A DNA stretch of 64,000 bases from Escherichia phage Killian, in the sequence record OQ446694.1; one strand, 5' to 3'. This document shows positions 2,531-25,786 of the stretch, piece after piece. The notes below the pieces were generated by a model. That model searched no databases and was not told where the DNA came from. It saw only the letters and a list, made by a program, of their open reading frames with translations. Both the position numbers and the translations under genes were made by a program. Every line of letters starts with the position of its first letter. The first letter of the stretch is position 1.

Positions 2531-2893
2531 TTAAAAGAATTTAAATTTTTTCTTTGACCTTTTATTAAATGCATCTTGTAGTTGCATTGTAATACATTTT
2601 TCTACATGAGGAGCTAACTCAGCTTTTCTTTCTTGGTCAAGAACAGCAAAGTCCATTACGACTTTTCCATCAACCCAATCTAATTTTGTCACATACACAA
2701 TGTGTGTAGAACCATCTTCTAGTTTAATGACAATCTCCTGGATAACATTTTCCATGGCAGATTTAATTATCTTAAGAGATTCATTAAAAAGACGTTCTTT
2801 TCTTTCTTCTTCCCCCTCCGAAGAGGGGGATTCATCGATAATTTCTAGATCTAAATCTAAATCATCTTTATTCATTAAATTCTTCCATATCAC
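2531..2893 (-). CDS. 40: gp40 head vertex assembly chaperone
   Basis: 120 aa acidic protein between uvsX and 41, as in T4. Confidence 0.7.
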   Translation of the reverse strand: MIWKNLMNKDDLDLDLEIIDESPSSEGEEERKERLFNESLKIIKSAMENVIQEIVIKLEDGSTHIVYVTKLDWVDGKVVMDFAVLDQERKAELAPHVEKCITMQLQDAFNKRSKKKFKFF

Positions 2894-4049
2894 TTAACTG
2901 ATCTAGGTCAGTTTCTAAATCAGCTGCTGATTTACTTTTACTTTCTGGAGATTTAAATTTTTCAACCTTTGAGTTAATCAATTCATCAACTTCAGCTTCA
3001 ACAATTTCATTACTATCAATAGCACCTAACTGATAAGCACGTTTAATAGCATCTCGGAATGGTTGATGCTTAAATAAAGGACCCCAGAATGTAGTGCAAT
3101 TGGTATCTTTTGCACGCCAAGATTTTTCTTCGCGAATCATCTCGCCAGTTTCTTCGTCAAGAAATTCACGAGCATACCAGCCATTTTTAGGTTTTACCAC
3201 AAATCCTAATTCAAGAGCCATATCTAACAATCCAGAATAAGGATCGATGCCACCGTCAAATTTAACATCAATAAAGAATTTACTTTTTTCTTTAACGGTA
3301 CGAGATTTTTCTACATTTAGAACAAATTGATACCCCTGAAGATCAGAACCATCTTTAATCTGGCGCTTACCGATAATGAATACAGTATCAGCCGAATACA
3401 TTACGCCTGTACCACCTGTCATCACGGTTTTACTAAACATTTCAATTGTTTCAATTGTATGGTTAACCGCAACACACGGAATGTTTTTAATACTAAAATA
3501 AGGAGTAACAATACGGAATAATGACTTCAGTGATTTAGCACGAGTCATATCTGCCACAGATTTTTCATTCAAGGCATCTTCCGTTTCTTTCTTAGAAGCC
3601 ATATTACCAATTGAGTCGATGAATACAATAACTTTTTCACCACGCTCAATAGCTTCAAGCTGATTCACCATATCAATTTTCAGCTGTTCAACTGACTGAA
3701 TTGGTGTATGAATTACTCGTTCCGGGTCAACTCCCATGGATCGCAAATAAGCTGGAGTAATACCAAATTCGCTATCATAGAATAGACATACCGCGTCAGG
3801 ATATTTGTTCAAATACGCCGCAACCATAGTCAAAGACATATTTGATTTAAAGTGTTTAGAAGGACCTGCAAAAATGGTTAAACCAGACTGCATACCACCA
3901 TCAATCGCACCAGAAATAGCGATATTAAGCATTGGGATTTTTGTACGGATTACATCCTTTTCATTAAAGAATTTAGATGTAGTCAGTTCAGCAGTCATTT
4001 TAGAAGTGGAAGCTTTAATCAAACGGGATTTTAAATCTGCAATAGACAT
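2868..4049 (-). CDS. uvsX: UvsX recombinase (RecA/Rad51 family)
   Basis: 393 aa; RecA-like core; T4 position. Confidence 0.95.
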   Translation of the reverse strand: MSIADLKSRLIKASTSKMTAELTTSKFFNEKDVIRTKIPMLNIAISGAIDGGMQSGLTIFAGPSKHFKSNMSLTMVAAYLNKYPDAVCLFYDSEFGITPAYLRSMGVDPERVIHTPIQSVEQLKIDMVNQLEAIERGEKVIVFIDSIGNMASKKETEDALNEKSVADMTRAKSLKSLFRIVTPYFSIKNIPCVAVNHTIETIEMFSKTVMTGGTGVMYSADTVFIIGKRQIKDGSDLQGYQFVLNVEKSRTVKEKSKFFIDVKFDGGIDPYSGLLDMALELGFVVKPKNGWYAREFLDEETGEMIREEKSWRAKDTNCTTFWGPLFKHQPFRDAIKRAYQLGAIDSNEIVEAEVDELINSKVEKFKSPESKSKSAADLETDLDQLSDMEEFNE

Positions 4050-4126
4050 TCATTTTTTCCATAGGCATCATTATATTTTCCTCACTGGTTAAAGATAAAG
4101 TAATTATAACACAATAAATTTAGGCA

Positions 4127-4975
4127 TTAATCAACTGCTATTGGATGAATAGCATTAAACTTATGAAACGCTTCTGATTTTTCTTTGCGCGAAACACACA
4201 TGCGAAGAACCTTTAATGGCTCGTCTTCTTCACCTAATGATTTTCGTTTTTCAATATTAGAAGTTTTCCAACGAGCTTGCTCTGGAAACTCTCTATTGAT
4301 TTGCTCAAGAGCTCTATTATGTTTTGAATTACTACGAATTGAACTACATCCGCCTGGAGCTTGTGCTTTTCCAGATACAACCAGATATTTGAACAAGGCC
4401 AAATGCGGATAACCTTGATTAATTAAATTGAGAAATGCATACATATCTTCGCATAAATCAATTTTTCCATACCCAATTTGTTCTGTCGTAAGTTTTCCAA
4501 GGTCATACCATGTATTCGTGAATCCATATGAATTTTCACGATAATTACCCCAAGATGAAGTAATTTTAAAAATTGGTAAACGAGCATGACCATGATAATA
4601 CCCGCAATCCATGGCATCTTCAACGTATTGAATCAATTCATAGAACTGTTCACGAGTTAATTGATTAATTTTATCTACGCAGCGACGATCATCTTTCTTT
4701 CGCATTGAACTCATACGAATAGTAGTATCATCATCAATCATCCAGATTCGTTGGCCTGCATACATATCAGTAATTGCTTTACGAGTACCAGCAATTCCAT
4801 TAACATCATCAGGAATAGTTATAATTTTGGCTCTAGACCCGTAAGCGTCATAATAAGCTTTTTCTTCGTGTTCACGTACTACAATATGCGGTTCATAATC
4901 AGATGGAAACATATCAAGGGCAGAAACTGCCCCTACGCGTTGATAGCTTGGAATTACGAATTGAATCATTTCCAC
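4127..4975 (-). CDS. putative DNA glycosyltransferase with DxD motif (not T4 beta-gt; possibly T2/T6-type beta-glucosyl-HMC alpha-glucosyltransferase)
   Basis: 282 aa; IWMIDDD DxD motif; occupies the uvsX-42 slot where T4 has beta-gt. Confidence 0.5.
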   Translation of the reverse strand: MEMIQFVIPSYQRVGAVSALDMFPSDYEPHIVVREHEEKAYYDAYGSRAKIITIPDDVNGIAGTRKAITDMYAGQRIWMIDDDTTIRMSSMRKKDDRRCVDKINQLTREQFYELIQYVEDAMDCGYYHGHARLPIFKITSSWGNYRENSYGFTNTWYDLGKLTTEQIGYGKIDLCEDMYAFLNLINQGYPHLALFKYLVVSGKAQAPGGCSSIRSNSKHNRALEQINREFPEQARWKTSNIEKRKSLGEEDEPLKVLRMCVSRKEKSEAFHKFNAIHPIAVD

Positions 4976-5706
4976 TCACCGTTATAATCTTTTTTCGCAA
5001 TATGAGTTTCGCCAGTTTTCCACCAATGGTCAACCAAATAAAAATGACGGGAATACACATGAAGGCTTCCGACATTCCATATAATGGAACCTGCTTTATA
5101 CTGACGAGTTGAATCACCTGCATTCAAATCAGATACTAATTTATCTAGTACGTATTTTTGCCATGCATAATCATTACGGAATCCGAAAACCACGTCATTT
5201 GAACGCATGCTTACTACTGCATTGACTTTCTTATCACGAATCAGGTACTGTACTGTATTAGTACACATGAAATCTGACATACCATCTTTATTGTAGTCAA
5301 ACTGCATGGATGGACGAGTATAAATCATGATACCACGCCGAGAATCAGGATTTTGACCAAGCTCAGCTAAACACATATCATACTGGGCATAGTTATCTTC
5401 TGACCAGATGGCCCAACCATAATTCGAGTTAATTTCGCCTTTAGAAGATGCTACCTGTTGCCAAATCTTTGGTGTTTCACCTGGAATATCTTTAACAAAC
5501 AGACTTTGAGACTTATACCATTCAAGTTCACGTTGAATGTATTCATCATTAAGAGCGCCAAAAATAAACGGTTCATCTGCTACAAATGATGCACCAATAA
5601 TTTCAATAGTTTTAACACCAGTTTTATCAACTACGAAATCTTTTTCCTTTAATGCAAGCCCCAAATGAAGACGGATTTCTTCAACTGTCATAGAGTCACT
5701 AATCAT
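4966..5706 (-). CDS. 42: dCMP hydroxymethylase gp42
   Basis: 246 aa; thymidylate-synthase-like fold; T4 length and position. Confidence 0.95.
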   Translation of the reverse strand: MISDSMTVEEIRLHLGLALKEKDFVVDKTGVKTIEIIGASFVADEPFIFGALNDEYIQRELEWYKSQSLFVKDIPGETPKIWQQVASSKGEINSNYGWAIWSEDNYAQYDMCLAELGQNPDSRRGIMIYTRPSMQFDYNKDGMSDFMCTNTVQYLIRDKKVNAVVSMRSNDVVFGFRNDYAWQKYVLDKLVSDLNAGDSTRQYKAGSIIWNVGSLHVYSRHFYLVDHWWKTGETHIAKKDYNGEWK

Positions 5707-6509: not shown

Positions 6510-6775
6510 TCAAATACAAGTAGTAATTACTCCAGTAGTGCTTACACAGGTATTACCTAATTGAACACCAAGCGTTCCATTAGTATTCATATGAAGATTA
6601 TCATCAATTTTTGTTGATACTTTACCATTCATGTGAATAACAGTATTAGATTCAATCACATTCTGAGTGTCATTTTCAATATCAATAAATGGAACAGCTG
6701 CTAATGCAACTAGAACAACTGCTAATGCAACTAAACACGCTGCTAAACAACCATAAACAATTTTCATTTTATTCT
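6510..6775 (-). CDS. small membrane-anchored protein
   Basis: track ORF 6510..6956 over-extends into gene 43; MKIVYG start at about 6775 has a GGAG Shine-Dalgarno and follows the early promoter. Confidence 0.45.
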
Positions 6776-15182: not shown

Positions 15183-16198
15183 TGTGTTGCCTCTACATAT
15201 AACTGATTTGCATATTGAATAAGTGCTTCGCGGTCAGAATCAGTGATGTCTGGAATTGCATTAATGTATTCTTCCATCAATGTCTGAAGAGATTGAACTT
15301 CAACTTCTTCACTATCATCTGACTCAACAGAGTTATCAATCTTTGACACAACTCGTAATGAATGCACAACTTTTTCTAGTTCAGATTCGAACTTCGTCAG
15401 ATTTTTGTCTACCTCAGTTACTATAACACGTACTGATAGATTTGTAAAATCTTTATAGTCAATTTTTCCCTTAAATGGATATTGAATTCGACGATGCCAG
15501 GTAGTGTTGTTTGGAATAAATTCCATTCGTTCTGTTTCTGTATCAAACATCCAGAACCCACGAGGGTCATTCTCGTCACCTGCAGTTAGTGTCCATGGTG
15601 TCCCAATATATCTGACGTTAGCAGCCTCAGAGATAGTATGGAAGTGACCAGACCACACTTCTTTATAAGTCTTAAGGAAATCAGGTTCAAGACCGTGAGA
15701 TTTCATTCCTTTATAAAAATAAAATCCATTCAGTTCCCAGTGACCAACACAAAAAGAAGCAGATGAAGTTTTGATGTGTTCAAGAATTTCACCAGTATTT
15801 TCTTCACACATCCAAGGAATTAAATCAATCAAACATCCGTCAAAATCTACTGTAGTAGGCTTATCATATACTTTAACATTAGGATATTTAGCCAAAAGCT
15901 CAGTAGAAGCATTTGGATGCATTACATTTTTGTAGTGGAGATCGTGATTTCCTACAATAGTATGTAATGTGATTCCAGCGTCATCAAGCATTTGAACTAT
16001 TTCACGGGCAAACTCCATAGTTTTATGCGTGATCGCTTTTCGTACATCAAAAATATCACCGTATTGAATCCATACAGTAATTCCATTTTTCTTAGAATAT
16101 TCTATCGCTTGCTTAATTCCGTCAAGTTGAATACCGCGAATCCATTCATCATCAGCTTTAACGCCTAAATGCCAATCACCCAAGTTTAGTATTTTCAT
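15179..16198 (-). CDS. 47: recombination nuclease subunit gp47 (Mre11/SbcD-like)
   Basis: 339 aa; phosphoesterase motifs DWHLG, GDIFD, GNHD. Confidence 0.95.
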   Translation of the reverse strand: MKILNLGDWHLGVKADDEWIRGIQLDGIKQAIEYSKKNGITVWIQYGDIFDVRKAITHKTMEFAREIVQMLDDAGITLHTIVGNHDLHYKNVMHPNASTELLAKYPNVKVYDKPTTVDFDGCLIDLIPWMCEENTGEILEHIKTSSASFCVGHWELNGFYFYKGMKSHGLEPDFLKTYKEVWSGHFHTISEAANVRYIGTPWTLTAGDENDPRGFWMFDTETERMEFIPNNTTWHRRIQYPFKGKIDYKDFTNLSVRVIVTEVDKNLTKFESELEKVVHSLRVVSKIDNSVESDDSEEVEVQSLQTLMEEYINAIPDITDSDREALIQYANQLYVEATQ

Positions 16199-16799
16199 GG
16201 TGTCTTTTCCATCCTAATTTAGCTGCTTTTGAAACTAGTTCTTTAATTTTTCCTTTTGTCCATTCAGGACCAGGAGGTTCATGACATAACATTTGCTTAA
16301 CTCCGTTATTATACCATTTTTTACCTTTATTATGTGATGAAGCTTTAAATTTATTTGACCTTCCTTTTACATAACCTTCTGGAATATACGGCAAAAAGGC
16401 AGATTTTCCTGTTAATGGGTCATGTGAATGTATATTTCCTTTACAATTATGAGAACCATATAATGGATGATTTTGTCCTTTAATATCTCTTCCAAATGAA
16501 CCTTTTGGAGCAGCATATGACATATTAAAGAATAATGGATTTTTAACCGCATCATGCAAACGTTGATAATATAGCTCGCATTTAATAGCTTCTTCGCGCG
16601 TATCAAATTCATCTAAAATGCATGAATCAAATAAATGTGGGTTATCTGAAAGTTCTTCATTATAAATTTTCTTATACTTTTTAGATAAAACTGATCCATG
16701 ATATCCGGCTAAATGCCTATCTAAAGATGTAGATCCAATATAAAAAGGAGGAAGTTTATCTCCACTATATATTGTTAAATAAGTTATATATTTTTTCAT
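16176..16799 (-). CDS. freestanding homing endonuclease, GIY-YIG-like with NUMOD-type repeats
   Basis: 207 aa; N-terminal IY...YIG motif; repeated NHPLYG-type motifs; inserted between 47 and a-gt, overlapping the 47 start. Confidence 0.55.
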   Translation of the reverse strand: MKKYITYLTIYSGDKLPPFYIGSTSLDRHLAGYHGSVLSKKYKKIYNEELSDNPHLFDSCILDEFDTREEAIKCELYYQRLHDAVKNPLFFNMSYAAPKGSFGRDIKGQNHPLYGSHNCKGNIHSHDPLTGKSAFLPYIPEGYVKGRSNKFKASSHNKGKKWYNNGVKQMLCHEPPGPEWTKGKIKELVSKAAKLGWKRHHENTKLG

Positions 16800-16960: not shown

Positions 16961-16977
16961 AAGGGCCGAAGCCCTTT
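16961..16977 (-). terminator. C(UUCG)G tetraloop hairpin upstream of a-gt
   Basis: AGGGC-CGAA-GCCCT. Confidence 0.45.
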
Positions 16978-18178
16978 ATTTTGTAATAATGTCAAACTGT
17001 TCTTTAAAACAGAAGCTTGAATCTTGATGCTGATACAAAAATTCATAAGCTTTTTCGCGTTCACGGTCATAAAGAGTTCGGTCAGATGACAGTTCTTTAA
17101 TACGCTCAAATGTTGATTCCATGTCATTTTCATCAAACCAAACGATACCGCTATCATGAGAAATTAACGGAGTATTATCAACACGGAATTTTAAATTTTC
17201 GCCAGTAGATTTCCAAAATACTGGAATTGTTCCACATGCACCAAGCTCGAGATGAGTATATTCTAAAGAACGTTGTAGATATTTTTTATCCAACTTACTC
17301 AGCTGATAACCAAATCCGGATTTACTCATACGTTCAAGCATTTCGCTATTTACATAACGGTCAAGAATTTGCGTCGGCAAATTAGGAGCAATTTTAATTT
17401 GGTCTACTTGATGAAGACGATAATACTCGTATGGAATTCCTTTTTCTTTAATAGGAATGAACGCTGGAGAACGTTCCAGACCTTCCATAATAGTACTTAG
17501 TCCTGCAGGTTTAAGATGTTTTTCATGAAAATCAAACATCTGATAAAAGCCTTTCCATGTAGTAGTACGACCAATCCAACGGTTGATATTCATGTTAATT
17601 TCAGAAACATCTTTCCAGTAGGTTGATCGAACCTTCGCAATATCCATAGGAGGCTGAAAGTTATATACGGTCGGTGCTTCTTCAATATCATCAAACAGAG
17701 AAACTGTTTCTGGATACCATTCTTTCATTAAAACTTTATTAAAATCGCCATTATCAGAATGACTAAAAATAACATCAGCTCGACGAACAGTTTCTTCTAA
17801 TCCCAAATTTCGGCGTAAAGAAAGAGAAGAATGGTCATGCTGATAAACTACAACACGAACCGAAGGTTTAATATTATCAATAATTTTTTTATAGTTATTA
17901 ATTGTGTCTTCTTCTACTGAAGTAGCAGGAACTGAATTGATAATTAGAATATCACAATCATTTACCAGCTTAAGTGTTTTATCGTATTCTTTTGCCAATA
18001 AAACCGGAATTGAAAATGACTTATAATCATGTGCGCAATTACGAGTAAATGATTTATCTTTAGCATAAACCAAAGTTACTTCATGACCATTTTTAATAAA
18101 CCAATCACGTTGCTCAAGAGAAAATTTAGTTACACCACAACCTTCAAGACCTCGAGCCATAAAAATACATACTTTCAT
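16976..18178 (-). CDS. a-gt: DNA alpha-glucosyltransferase
   Basis: 400 aa, MKVCIFMARGLEGCGVTKF...; T4 length and position. Confidence 0.9.
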   Translation of the reverse strand: MKVCIFMARGLEGCGVTKFSLEQRDWFIKNGHEVTLVYAKDKSFTRNCAHDYKSFSIPVLLAKEYDKTLKLVNDCDILIINSVPATSVEEDTINNYKKIIDNIKPSVRVVVYQHDHSSLSLRRNLGLEETVRRADVIFSHSDNGDFNKVLMKEWYPETVSLFDDIEEAPTVYNFQPPMDIAKVRSTYWKDVSEINMNINRWIGRTTTWKGFYQMFDFHEKHLKPAGLSTIMEGLERSPAFIPIKEKGIPYEYYRLHQVDQIKIAPNLPTQILDRYVNSEMLERMSKSGFGYQLSKLDKKYLQRSLEYTHLELGACGTIPVFWKSTGENLKFRVDNTPLISHDSGIVWFDENDMESTFERIKELSSDRTLYDREREKAYEFLYQHQDSSFCFKEQFDIITK

Positions 18179-22690: not shown

Positions 22691-24504
22691 TGGTGTTTAA
22701 CCCTATGCATGATTTCTTTATTTTTGCCGAGATTAAATCCGCGTTCATTCGGATTTCCCAAATAACCACAAGTTCTTCTTATTGTGTTCATCTTTTTAGG
22801 ATCAGTTTCTCCACAAATAGAACAAACAAACCCGTTTTCAGTAGGAGTCATTTCATGGGTACTTCCGCATGTAAAACATTTATCTACTGGCATATTAACA
22901 CCAAAATAATCTAAATGTTGTGCAGCATAATCCCATACAGCCTCAAGACCTTTTAGGTTATTTTTCATATCAGGAAGTTCAACATAAGAAATGTGACCAC
23001 CTGTCGCAATGAAATGATATGGGGCTTCGCGAGAAATCTTTTCAAATGGAGTAATATTTTCTTCTACCGAAACGTGGAAACTGTTAGTGTACCAGCCTTT
23101 ATCGGTAACATCTTTTACACTTCCATATTTTTCGGTATCAAGTTTACAGAAGCGATAGCACAGGTTTTCAGCAGGTGTAGAATACAAACTAAAAGCAAAA
23201 CCGGTTCTTTCAGTCCACTGCTTAAGATGAGCATTCATTTTAGTTAAAATTTCTTGTCCAATATCACGACCGACAAGAATATTCAATTCGTGAATACCAA
23301 TGTATCCTAGGGACACTGAACTTCTACCGTTTTTAAATAACTCAATTATATCGTCATCAGGTTTAAGACGAACCCCGAATGCACCTTCTTGATAAAGAAT
23401 AGGAGCAACAGTCGCTTTAACTCCTTTTAAGGAACTAATTCTACACATCAAAGCTTCAAAACACAAATCCATTCGTTCATTGAACAATTCAGCAAATTTC
23501 TGTTCATTGAACTGTGTTCCAATATAAGAATCTAGTGCAATGCGAGGAAGATTCAGTGTTACAACACCAAGATTATTACGTCCATCAAGAATTTCATTAC
23601 CAGTCGAATCTTTCCATACACCCAAGAAACTACGACAACCCATTGGAGAAACAGGAATAGATGAACCGGTGATAGCTTTATTGTTCTTAGCTGAAATAAT
23701 ATCAGGATACATTCTTTTGCTTGCACACTCTAGAGCAAGCTGCTTAATATCATAGTTTGGATCGTCTTTATAAAGATTAACACCTTCTTCAACGAACATA
23801 ACAAGCTTAGGGAAAATAGGAGTTATCCCATCACGACCAAGACCTTTAATACGATTTTTCAGAATTGCTTTCTGAATCATTCGTTCAGTCCAGTCAGTTC
23901 CCGTACCAAATGTAATTGTTACAAAAGGCGTTTGTCCGTTTGAACTAAAGAGAGTATTTACTTCATATTCATAAGCTTGGAATGCATCGTATACGTCTTT
24001 TTCTGTTTTAGACTGGGCGTAATTCAACGCATCAGCGATTTGCCATTTTTCTGCGTCCTCAATATGTTTTGCGTAGGTGCGTTTAACATAAGGAGAAAGG
24101 ACTTTATCTACATTCGCAAAAGTCGTTCCGCCATATTGATGGGAAGCAACCTGCGCAGTAATTTGTGCCATAATTGCAGTAGCAACGCCGATTGATTTAG
24201 GAGTTTCAATCTGCGCATTACCGAGCTTAAATCCATTCTCAAGCATTCCTTTTAAATCGACTAAACAGCAATTAGTAAAAGGCAATGATATACTGTAATC
24301 TAAATCATGAAAATGAATTAATCCAACATTATGTGCATTTACAATATGACTTGGAAGAATACGACAAGCGATATGTTTAGAAACAATACCGGCCATTAAA
24401 TCTCTTTTTGTTGGAAAGACACGAGAATCTTTGTTGGCGTTTTCGGTATTTAATTCTTTATCTTTATTTGAAATAAAATTTAAAACATCTTTCTCTAAAG
24501 ACAT
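22687..24504 (-). CDS. nrdD: anaerobic ribonucleoside-triphosphate reductase NrdD
   Basis: 605 aa uninterrupted; C-terminal glycyl radical motif RRTCGYLG and Zn-ribbon cysteines. Confidence 0.95.
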   Translation of the reverse strand: MSLEKDVLNFISNKDKELNTENANKDSRVFPTKRDLMAGIVSKHIACRILPSHIVNAHNVGLIHFHDLDYSISLPFTNCCLVDLKGMLENGFKLGNAQIETPKSIGVATAIMAQITAQVASHQYGGTTFANVDKVLSPYVKRTYAKHIEDAEKWQIADALNYAQSKTEKDVYDAFQAYEYEVNTLFSSNGQTPFVTITFGTGTDWTERMIQKAILKNRIKGLGRDGITPIFPKLVMFVEEGVNLYKDDPNYDIKQLALECASKRMYPDIISAKNNKAITGSSIPVSPMGCRSFLGVWKDSTGNEILDGRNNLGVVTLNLPRIALDSYIGTQFNEQKFAELFNERMDLCFEALMCRISSLKGVKATVAPILYQEGAFGVRLKPDDDIIELFKNGRSSVSLGYIGIHELNILVGRDIGQEILTKMNAHLKQWTERTGFAFSLYSTPAENLCYRFCKLDTEKYGSVKDVTDKGWYTNSFHVSVEENITPFEKISREAPYHFIATGGHISYVELPDMKNNLKGLEAVWDYAAQHLDYFGVNMPVDKCFTCGSTHEMTPTENGFVCSICGETDPKKMNTIRRTCGYLGNPNERGFNLGKNKEIMHRVKHQ

Positions 24505-25316
24505 AATTCTAATTTATCCTTTTGAAATTCTTCGTCTAAATATGGGTTCCAACCCATTTTAAACCTTTTGATGAAATTATCAATTCTAAATTTCGGTAAG
24601 TTTAAATCCGCAAAAATAGATGATTTACTTTTAAAATCTGGACCTAAATAATCATATAAAATTTCTGCGTATTTTAACCATAATATACAAGTACCAGATT
24701 TAATTGCTCTCGGAGTTTTCCAAGGTTTTACACCATACATCGGATTTCCACTTCCTTTATGCCTGATAGAAGATGAAATTCCAATTTTAATTTTAGCTTC
24801 CTTTGTATGCGAAAATCCACGATGCGGATTTTCTTTCCAGTATTTTTTAGAAGCTTCTGATATTTTCTTTCTGGCTAAATTAGTATGATGCTTTCCATAA
24901 AATCCATGATTTTTGCCTTTATTACGATTTCTTTTAATCATGGTTATTGATTGCTTTTCTCTAGTTTCTTTAGAAGGAGAAATACCATATGTCGTAAATT
25001 TGCCATCAGCATATGCTAAATTAAAATACTCTTTATTCCATACATCTTTTTCTATATTCTTTTGAAATTCAGCTTCAATGCTAGTTATTTGTTCATCTCC
25101 GACTAATTGAAAATATAATATTTCAACTTTCGGCGTTTCTTTCAACAGGGCTTTTTGAAATTCGGAAGATGACGAAGACGAATAATAAAATTTACCATTT
25201 TTATCAATAATATTCGTTCCGTCAAAAGTGCAATTGGTTTTACTTCCAATATAATAATATGGTGGGGTTTTAGCATTAATTCTACTAATAAATGATAGTT
25301 TATATACTACATTCAT
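24495..25316 (-). CDS. freestanding homing endonuclease-like protein (GIY-YIG-like N-terminus, NUMOD-type repeats)
   Basis: 273 aa; YYIGS motif; repeated NHGFYG/NPMYG motifs; between nrdD and 49. Confidence 0.55.
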   Translation of the reverse strand: MNVVYKLSFISRINAKTPPYYYIGSKTNCTFDGTNIIDKNGKFYYSSSSSSEFQKALLKETPKVEILYFQLVGDEQITSIEAEFQKNIEKDVWNKEYFNLAYADGKFTTYGISPSKETREKQSITMIKRNRNKGKNHGFYGKHHTNLARKKISEASKKYWKENPHRGFSHTKEAKIKIGISSSIRHKGSGNPMYGVKPWKTPRAIKSGTCILWLKYAEILYDYLGPDFKSKSSIFADLNLPKFRIDNFIKRFKMGWNPYLDEEFQKDKLELCL

Positions 25317-25786
25317 TTTAAACTCTTTCTAAGCTGCTTCTTAAATGAAGCTATTAATTGTGTTTTAGTGTCAGATTCATTATATTCAAATCCTCTTTGA
25401 AGCATCTCAGCCATCATTTCCTCTTTTCCTAAACGAGAAAATTCCTTTGATTTATCTCCAACGAAGTTAGGGTGAATATTATTTTGGGTGTAATCGGATT
25501 TTAAATAAGTAAGTAAATTTTCTAACCATTCAAGATAATCAACGCCTTGTCCCTTTAAGCCAGAACGATTAAATTTGTGTTTCATTTGACCTTCCGCTGC
25601 ATTGCAAAGATTACAGAGCAATCCACGTACCTTTCCTGCTTTTGGTCCATTTAATTCATGGTCATGGTCGAGGTGATTAGCTTGAACATCAGGATTTAGT
25701 TCTCGTTGGCAAATTAAGCATTTACCGTTTTGTGCATTATAAAATTTTTGTTTTTCTTCTTTGTATAATTTGCCAGTCAATAACAT
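25313..25786 (-). CDS. 49: endonuclease VII gp49 (Holliday junction resolvase)
   Basis: 157 aa; Zn-binding cysteines and HLDHDHELN His-Me finger. Confidence 0.9.
   Translation of the reverse strand: MLLTGKLYKEEKQKFYNAQNGKCLICQRELNPDVQANHLDHDHELNGPKAGKVRGLLCNLCNAAEGQMKHKFNRSGLKGQGVDYLEWLENLLTYLKSDYTQNNIHPNFVGDKSKEFSRLGKEEMMAEMLQRGFEYNESDTKTQLIASFKKQLRKSLK

Follow-up and report, generated by a model that had tools for sequence, protein, structure and literature searches.

A gene between uvsX and gene 42 of Escherichia phage Killian very probably encodes the T2/T6-type β-glucosyl-HMC-α-glucosyltransferase

The interval between uvsX and gene 42

The main features of the locus are collected in Table 1. 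In the window, that is, the whole 64-kb stretch of the ~168-kb genome of phage Killian analyzed here, a single minus-strand reading frame, referred to below as βα-gt, separates uvsX from gene 42. If started at GTG, the mechanical reading frame runs from 4127 to 4975 and encodes 282 aa. An earlier sequence-only reading had placed a glycosyltransferase of that length between the two genes; its position stands, but the length does not, the likely start being the ATG at 4969, two codons inside the GTG, which gives a protein of 280 aa. The resulting 843-nt coding sequence agrees with the one annotated at the same place in PP01, T2, and phage Some. Its ATG shares the tetranucleotide ATGA (4966-4969) with the TGA stop of gene 42, an overlap that makes co-transcription and translational coupling of the two genes probable. 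The α-glucosyltransferase gene α-gt, named in the same reading, is indeed present farther along the window.

Table 1. Positions of the genes, motifs, and other features discussed in the text (window coordinates; fractions are counts among 152 aligned relatives)
Feature	Position	Strand	Remarks
uvsX, downstream neighbor of βα-gt	2868..4049	-	PF21134/PF00154
Segment without nucleotide homology to T4	4038..4983		blastn: homology stops at 4037, resumes at 4984
βα-gt CDS (very probable beta-glucosyl-HMC-alpha-glucosyltransferase; ggt, TAGT)	4127..4969	-	280 aa; stop codon 4127-4129
GGCSSIR codons G206-R212	4334..4354	-	G206 150/152, G207 152/152, C208 133/152, R212 148/152
"ED" motif codons E174-D175	4445..4450	-	D175 152/152, E174 120/152
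DxD motif codons D79-D80-D81	4727..4735	-	D79 150/152, D80 152/152, D81 146/152
Arg11 codon, N-terminal IPSYQR motif	4937..4939	-	R in 151/152; T2 has His
Gene 42, dCMP hydroxymethylase, upstream neighbor	4966..5706	-	PF00303; stop overlaps βα-gt start codon
α-gt, α-glucosyltransferase	16976..18178	-	400 aa; PF11440 full-length E = 5.7e-236; PHROG 2888 E = 4.9e-222

Scans around βα-gt yielded promoter-like and terminator-like sites at chance level (12 versus 10.6 expected and 1 versus 1.1 expected, respectively). The one terminator-like hairpin (4915-4935, minus strand; 9 pairs and then a T-rich tail) falls within the 5' coding end of the gene and is probably meaningless, as the count of such sites is at chance expectation.

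The sequence-only reading had contrasted this arrangement with that of T4, where the 351-aa β-glucosyltransferase β-gt was said to lie between uvsX and gene 42. The gene is there, but the T4 interval holds segA as well. Nucleotide homology to T4 spans uvsX and picks up again in the last codons of gene 42, and the 946 bp between these points stand in for the 1941-bp segA and β-gt segment of T4 (T4 record 23556-25496). The segA gene, encoding a GIY-YIG homing endonuclease, lies in T4 between uvsX and β-gt (T4 record 23570-24235, facing window positions 4038-4126); in its place the window has a 77-bp spacer, and so do T2, T6, PP01, and Some.

The window protein is unlike T4 β-gt, as had been suspected. 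The two showed no similarity in BLASTP (best E = 3.3), the protein has no match to the T4 β-gt family PF09198, and a tblastn search of the window with T4 β-gt as the query gave nothing at E <=10, so that the absence of β-gt holds for these 64 kb; β-gt is absent in relatives of the phage too (PMC13390438). The two enzymes occupy equivalent genome positions and, according to the literature cited here, T4 β-gt also takes UDP-glucose as the donor and places a β-linked glucose onto modified phage DNA. However, T4 β-gt has the GT-B fold, whereas the window protein belongs to the GT-A type (PMC13216743 and the structural comparison below), and the acceptor is bare hmC for T4 β-gt but α-glucosyl-hmC for βα-gt. 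As far as sequence comparison goes, βα-gt is an analogue of T4 β-gt that arose by cassette replacement, and no homologue of it.

Relation to the T2/T6 enzyme, fold, and conserved motifs

The gene is very probably the T2/T6-type β-glucosyl-HMC-α-glucosyltransferase, alternatively named βα-gt, ggt, or TAGT, which adds a second glucose to phage DNA already carrying one and which we take to be EC 2.4.1.28. Alignment with the T2/T6 enzyme, suggested in the sequence-only reading, shows 275/280 residues identical to T2 and 273/280 to T6, in both cases for the protein at the syntenic position, and the protein matches PHROG 842, which bears the name beta-glucosyl-HMC-alpha-glucosyltransferase (E = 1e-88). 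The T2 and T6 enzymes also share with it the uvsX/gene 42 position, the length of 280 aa, the DDD motif, and the partner α-gt. The window protein differs from that of T2 by 5 substitutions, including Arg11 where T2 has His, and from that of the T6 record AP018814 by 6 substitutions and one residue.

A megablast search with the gene matched 479 phage records, nearly all of them T4-like phages of Escherichia, Shigella, Yersinia, Salmonella, or Citrobacter, and the product name beta-glucosyl-HMC-alpha-glucosyltransferase is given in many of them. Coverage of the query by a single match is >=80% in 474/479 records, and likewise 474/479 have a best match with 90-99% identity. Thus, what had been presented as a departure from T4 is the usual occupant of the site. 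It is the pair of T4, α-GT plus β-GT, that is rare (6/753 genomes), α-GT or β-GT together with TAGT being the common state (PMC13216743). The combination of α-gt and βα-gt is common in Tequatrovirus, so the non-T4 arrangement is the norm and T4 the exception. βα-gt of Killian stands in its standard place in the T-even branch, where the enzyme is experimentally characterized; its identification is routine annotation of something already known.

A close relative is phage Some, whose orthologue is 98% identical to the βα-gt of the window and which is 96.7% identical to the window over the first 20 kb. Comparison with the orthologues of T2, T6, and Some gives 35-37 synonymous and 5-6 non-synonymous codon differences; by this ratio βα-gt is under purifying selection and is no chance reading frame. 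The same ratio bears on the alternative that the gene is an inactive remnant contributing nothing, as do the intact reading frame, the presence of all invariant residues, and the retention of the gene in 479 records. What could be said for a remnant is that both public T6 records carry a lesion, a lost Asp in one and an amber codon in the other, which points to tolerance of the loss of the gene in laboratory stocks. The βα-gt of the window is free of both lesions, and we consider the remnant extremely improbable; a pseudogene was rejected given the intact frame and the purifying selection.

As regards the lesions themselves, an in-frame loss has removed one of the three Asp codons of DDD from T6 record AP018814 (4135-4974 of the extracted locus) and from NC_054907, its copy in RefSeq. 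Among the matches listed in a tblastn census of this Asp-loss form, only these two are identical at 100%, and three records reach at least 99%. In T6 record MH550421 (4138-4980 of the extracted locus) an amber codon stands at Gln10 and the gene is annotated from Met20. Each lesion appears to be confined to the T6 stock concerned. The Asp-loss sequence of AP018814 is the one that served as the T6 TAGT reference in PMC13216743.

The protein belongs to Pfam family PF20691 (TET-associated glycosyltransferase, TAGT), which it matches with 38.8 bits against a gathering cut-off of 27.5 bits, residues 3-207 aligning to profile positions 2-205 of 205. When 1.84 billion cluster representatives were searched with a profile, 2266 relatives (representatives of 50%-identity clusters) were recovered at E <=0.001, of which 152 were aligned; the median identity of the latter to the window protein is 24%. 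The family is large and diverse, many members being found in other contexts and probably acting on other acceptors, and the window protein represents its T-even branch.

A sequence search of the PDB found no related solved structure, the best hits (E ~0.8-2) being His-tag or low-complexity artefacts. An AlphaFold2 model built with 11 sequences (mean pLDDT 77, pTM 0.80, with two low-confidence loops at 131-148 and 202-210) has the GT-A, or nucleotide-diphospho-sugar transferase, fold. The GT-A assignment made in the sequence-only reading is thus borne out by the model and by structural comparison, in which the matches are WrtF (9omh, 12.4), AvpGT (9jma, 12.4), TarS (5tze, 11.4), BcsA (4p00, 11.2), and SpsA (1h7l, 10.3). 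These GT2-type inverting GT-A enzymes are only 7-17% identical to the window protein, and they act on lipid, polysaccharide, or protein, whereas the acceptor of βα-gt is a sugar on DNA. Membership in GT2 (Glycos_transf_2) by sequence was rejected, as none of the GT2 models of Pfam gave a match at E <=1; the likeness is structural only. In agreement with this, the T6 TAGT has been modeled as a GT-A fold, sister to GT2 (PMC13216743).

None of the nearly invariant residues of the PF20691 family is missing from the window protein. The window residues kept in >=93% of the 152 aligned relatives are R11, D79-D81, D175, G206, G207, and R212 (Table 1), together with I6 (148/152), P7 (143/152), R63 (142/152), and G186 (98% of aligned sequences). 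The DxD motif on which the sequence-only reading had been based, IWMIDDD, occupies residues 75-81, and D79-D81 come after strand 74-78 of the model. The three aspartates are kept in 99%, 100%, and 96% of the 152 relatives, which makes the motif a family signature and no chance string.

Roles of individual residues can be proposed by analogy with GT-A and GT2 enzymes. By comparison with other GT-A enzymes, the binding site for the metal and for the diphosphate of UDP would be formed by the aspartates 79-81. Arg11 in the N-terminal IPSYQR loop would contact the nucleotide and, jointly with the DDD motif, hold the metal-UDP-glucose. E174/D175 are candidates for the base that would catalyze an inverting GT-A reaction. 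Finally, the GGCSSIR loop, overlapped by the low-confidence stretch 202-210 (pLDDT <50), may serve as a mobile lid.

Proposed pathway and predicted sugar pattern

Identity, orthology, fold, and motif conservation of βα-gt come from the analyses given here, and its activity is ascribed by analogy with the orthologues and from the literature. In the proposed pathway, gene 42 would make hm-dCMP, and hmC would enter the DNA during replication. The product of α-gt would then put an α-linked glucose on hmC, creating the acceptor for βα-gt. The latter would take glucose from host UDP-glucose and join it β-1,6 to the first glucose, the product, as judged from the orthologues, being gentiobiosyl-hmC. 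An inverting mechanism is proposed because glucose is α-linked in UDP-Glc and would be β-linked in the product.

The T2/T6 TAGT (PF20691) adds glucose to α-glucosylated hmC, producing gentiobiosyl-hmC (PMC13216743, NAR 2026). Deletion of ba-gt in T6 leaves only α-glucosyl-hmC and raises sensitivity to the Brig1 glycosylase (PMC11078745, Nature 2024), and the result was repeated with T6 Δg-gt (2026 preprint 10.64898/2026.02.25.707755). Since α-glucosyl-hmC is kept in the deletion mutant, the T6 enzyme acts second. This argues against the alternative that the enzyme is a primary glycosyltransferase acting directly on hmC, or that the sugar transferred is not glucose. Such activities are conceivable in the wider family, since its many distant members in phages lacking both α-GT and β-GT (288/753 genomes; PMC13216743) suggest that other acceptors are probably used there. 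For Killian we regard them as highly improbable: apart from the T6 deletion phenotype (PMC11078745; 10.64898/2026.02.25.707755), a change of specificity is unlikely at 98% identity to the T6 βα-gt, and only gentiobiose is present in relatives that possess both α-gt and βα-gt (PMC13390438).

With the glucose-adding second step as the preferred reading, gentiobiosyl-hmC is predicted, by analogy, to predominate in the DNA of Killian, accompanied by some unglucosylated hmC but by no β-monoglucosyl-hmC, which is the pattern of T6 and Some. A gentiobiosyl modification had been given as an example in the sequence-only reading, and this suggestion is supported. By LC-MS, the DNA of Some contains ~1/3 hmC and ~2/3 α-gentiobiosyl-hmC, with no β-glucosyl form (PMC13390438, AEM 2026), and the Durham Tequatroviruses measured in this way carry α-GT and TAGT without β-GT (PMC13390438). 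A mostly gentiobiosyl ratio like that of T6 and Some is likely for Killian, since every family-invariant residue is intact in it, unlike in T2.

The extent of diglucosylation is poorly readable from sequence, as the T2 and T6 enzymes are ~97% identical to each other, yet gentiobiosyl-hmC amounts to ~5% in T2 and 72% in T6 (PMC13390438; 10.64898/2026.02.25.707755). The same enzyme could show in Killian the low output of T2, leaving mainly α-monoglucosyl-hmC and a few percent of gentiobiosyl-hmC. The T2 gene, with its ~5% product, is 98% identical to that of the window, and some Tequatroviruses with the gene give intermediate ratios, for instance, 1:2:2 in the Durham phages EL, BGP, and Geo (PMC13390438). 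Nevertheless, a low level seems rather unlikely, since the window lacks the private R11H of T2 at a residue kept in 151/152 relatives, no other invariant residue is altered in it, and gentiobiosyl-hmC makes up about two thirds in the close relative Some (PMC13390438).

The His11 of T2, where the window and 151/152 family representatives have Arg, was followed through public sequences. A tblastn census with the N-terminal 30 residues of the T2 protein gave 681 matching records, 8 of them at 100%, namely seven T2 records from several laboratories (AP018813, 4283-5125 of the extracted locus; LC348380, 3295-4137 of the extracted locus; and five others) and SV76, with a record as long as that of T2. 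Among the matches listed, the next-best all differ from the T2 N-terminus at one position. An exact-pattern scan of IMG/VR found the His11 allele 0 times and the Arg allele 5 times, numbers too small to be used alone.

It is possible, if somewhat doubtful, that the βα-gt allele sets the ratio of mono- to diglucosylated hmC in T-even phages and that the low level in T2 comes from its private R11H substitution. R11H may then be a hypomorphic allele explaining the old difference between T2 and T6, an explanation that we did not find in the cited papers. If this is true, the window carries a fully competent allele and Killian should be T6-like.

Host defence and other reading frames of the window

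Which host defences are effective against a T-even phage is determined by the sugars on its hmC. Resistance to both the Brig1 glycosylase and the BapA glucosidase is conferred by gentiobiosyl-hmC but not by α-monoglucosyl-hmC (PMC11078745; 10.64898/2026.02.25.707755), BapA being unable to trim gentiobiose (10.64898/2026.02.25.707755). GmrSD-type enzymes still cut gentiobiosyl DNA (PMC13216743). With α-gt and βα-gt present and no β-gt within the window, the host range against such defence systems is predictable, and making this prediction for Killian from the two genes is routine annotation, no discovery.

Two further minus-strand reading frames were noted in the window. A 78-aa frame at 6510-6746, between imm.1 and the DNA polymerase gene 43, matches PHROG 4189 (E = 8.7e-27); a similar small frame is found at this site in PP01, T2, and Some, and none in the T4 and T6 annotations. 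The other, of 207 aa, is at 16176-16799, with gene 47 and α-gt as its neighbors and a 23-nt overlap with the start of gene 47. Its matches are to families of homing endonucleases (PHROG 10820, E = 7.6e-94; PHROG 314, E = 7.7e-18), with a weak Pfam GIY-YIG match below threshold, and it occurs also in phage Some, where it is annotated as hypothetical. It probably encodes a mobile endonuclease of the seg type.
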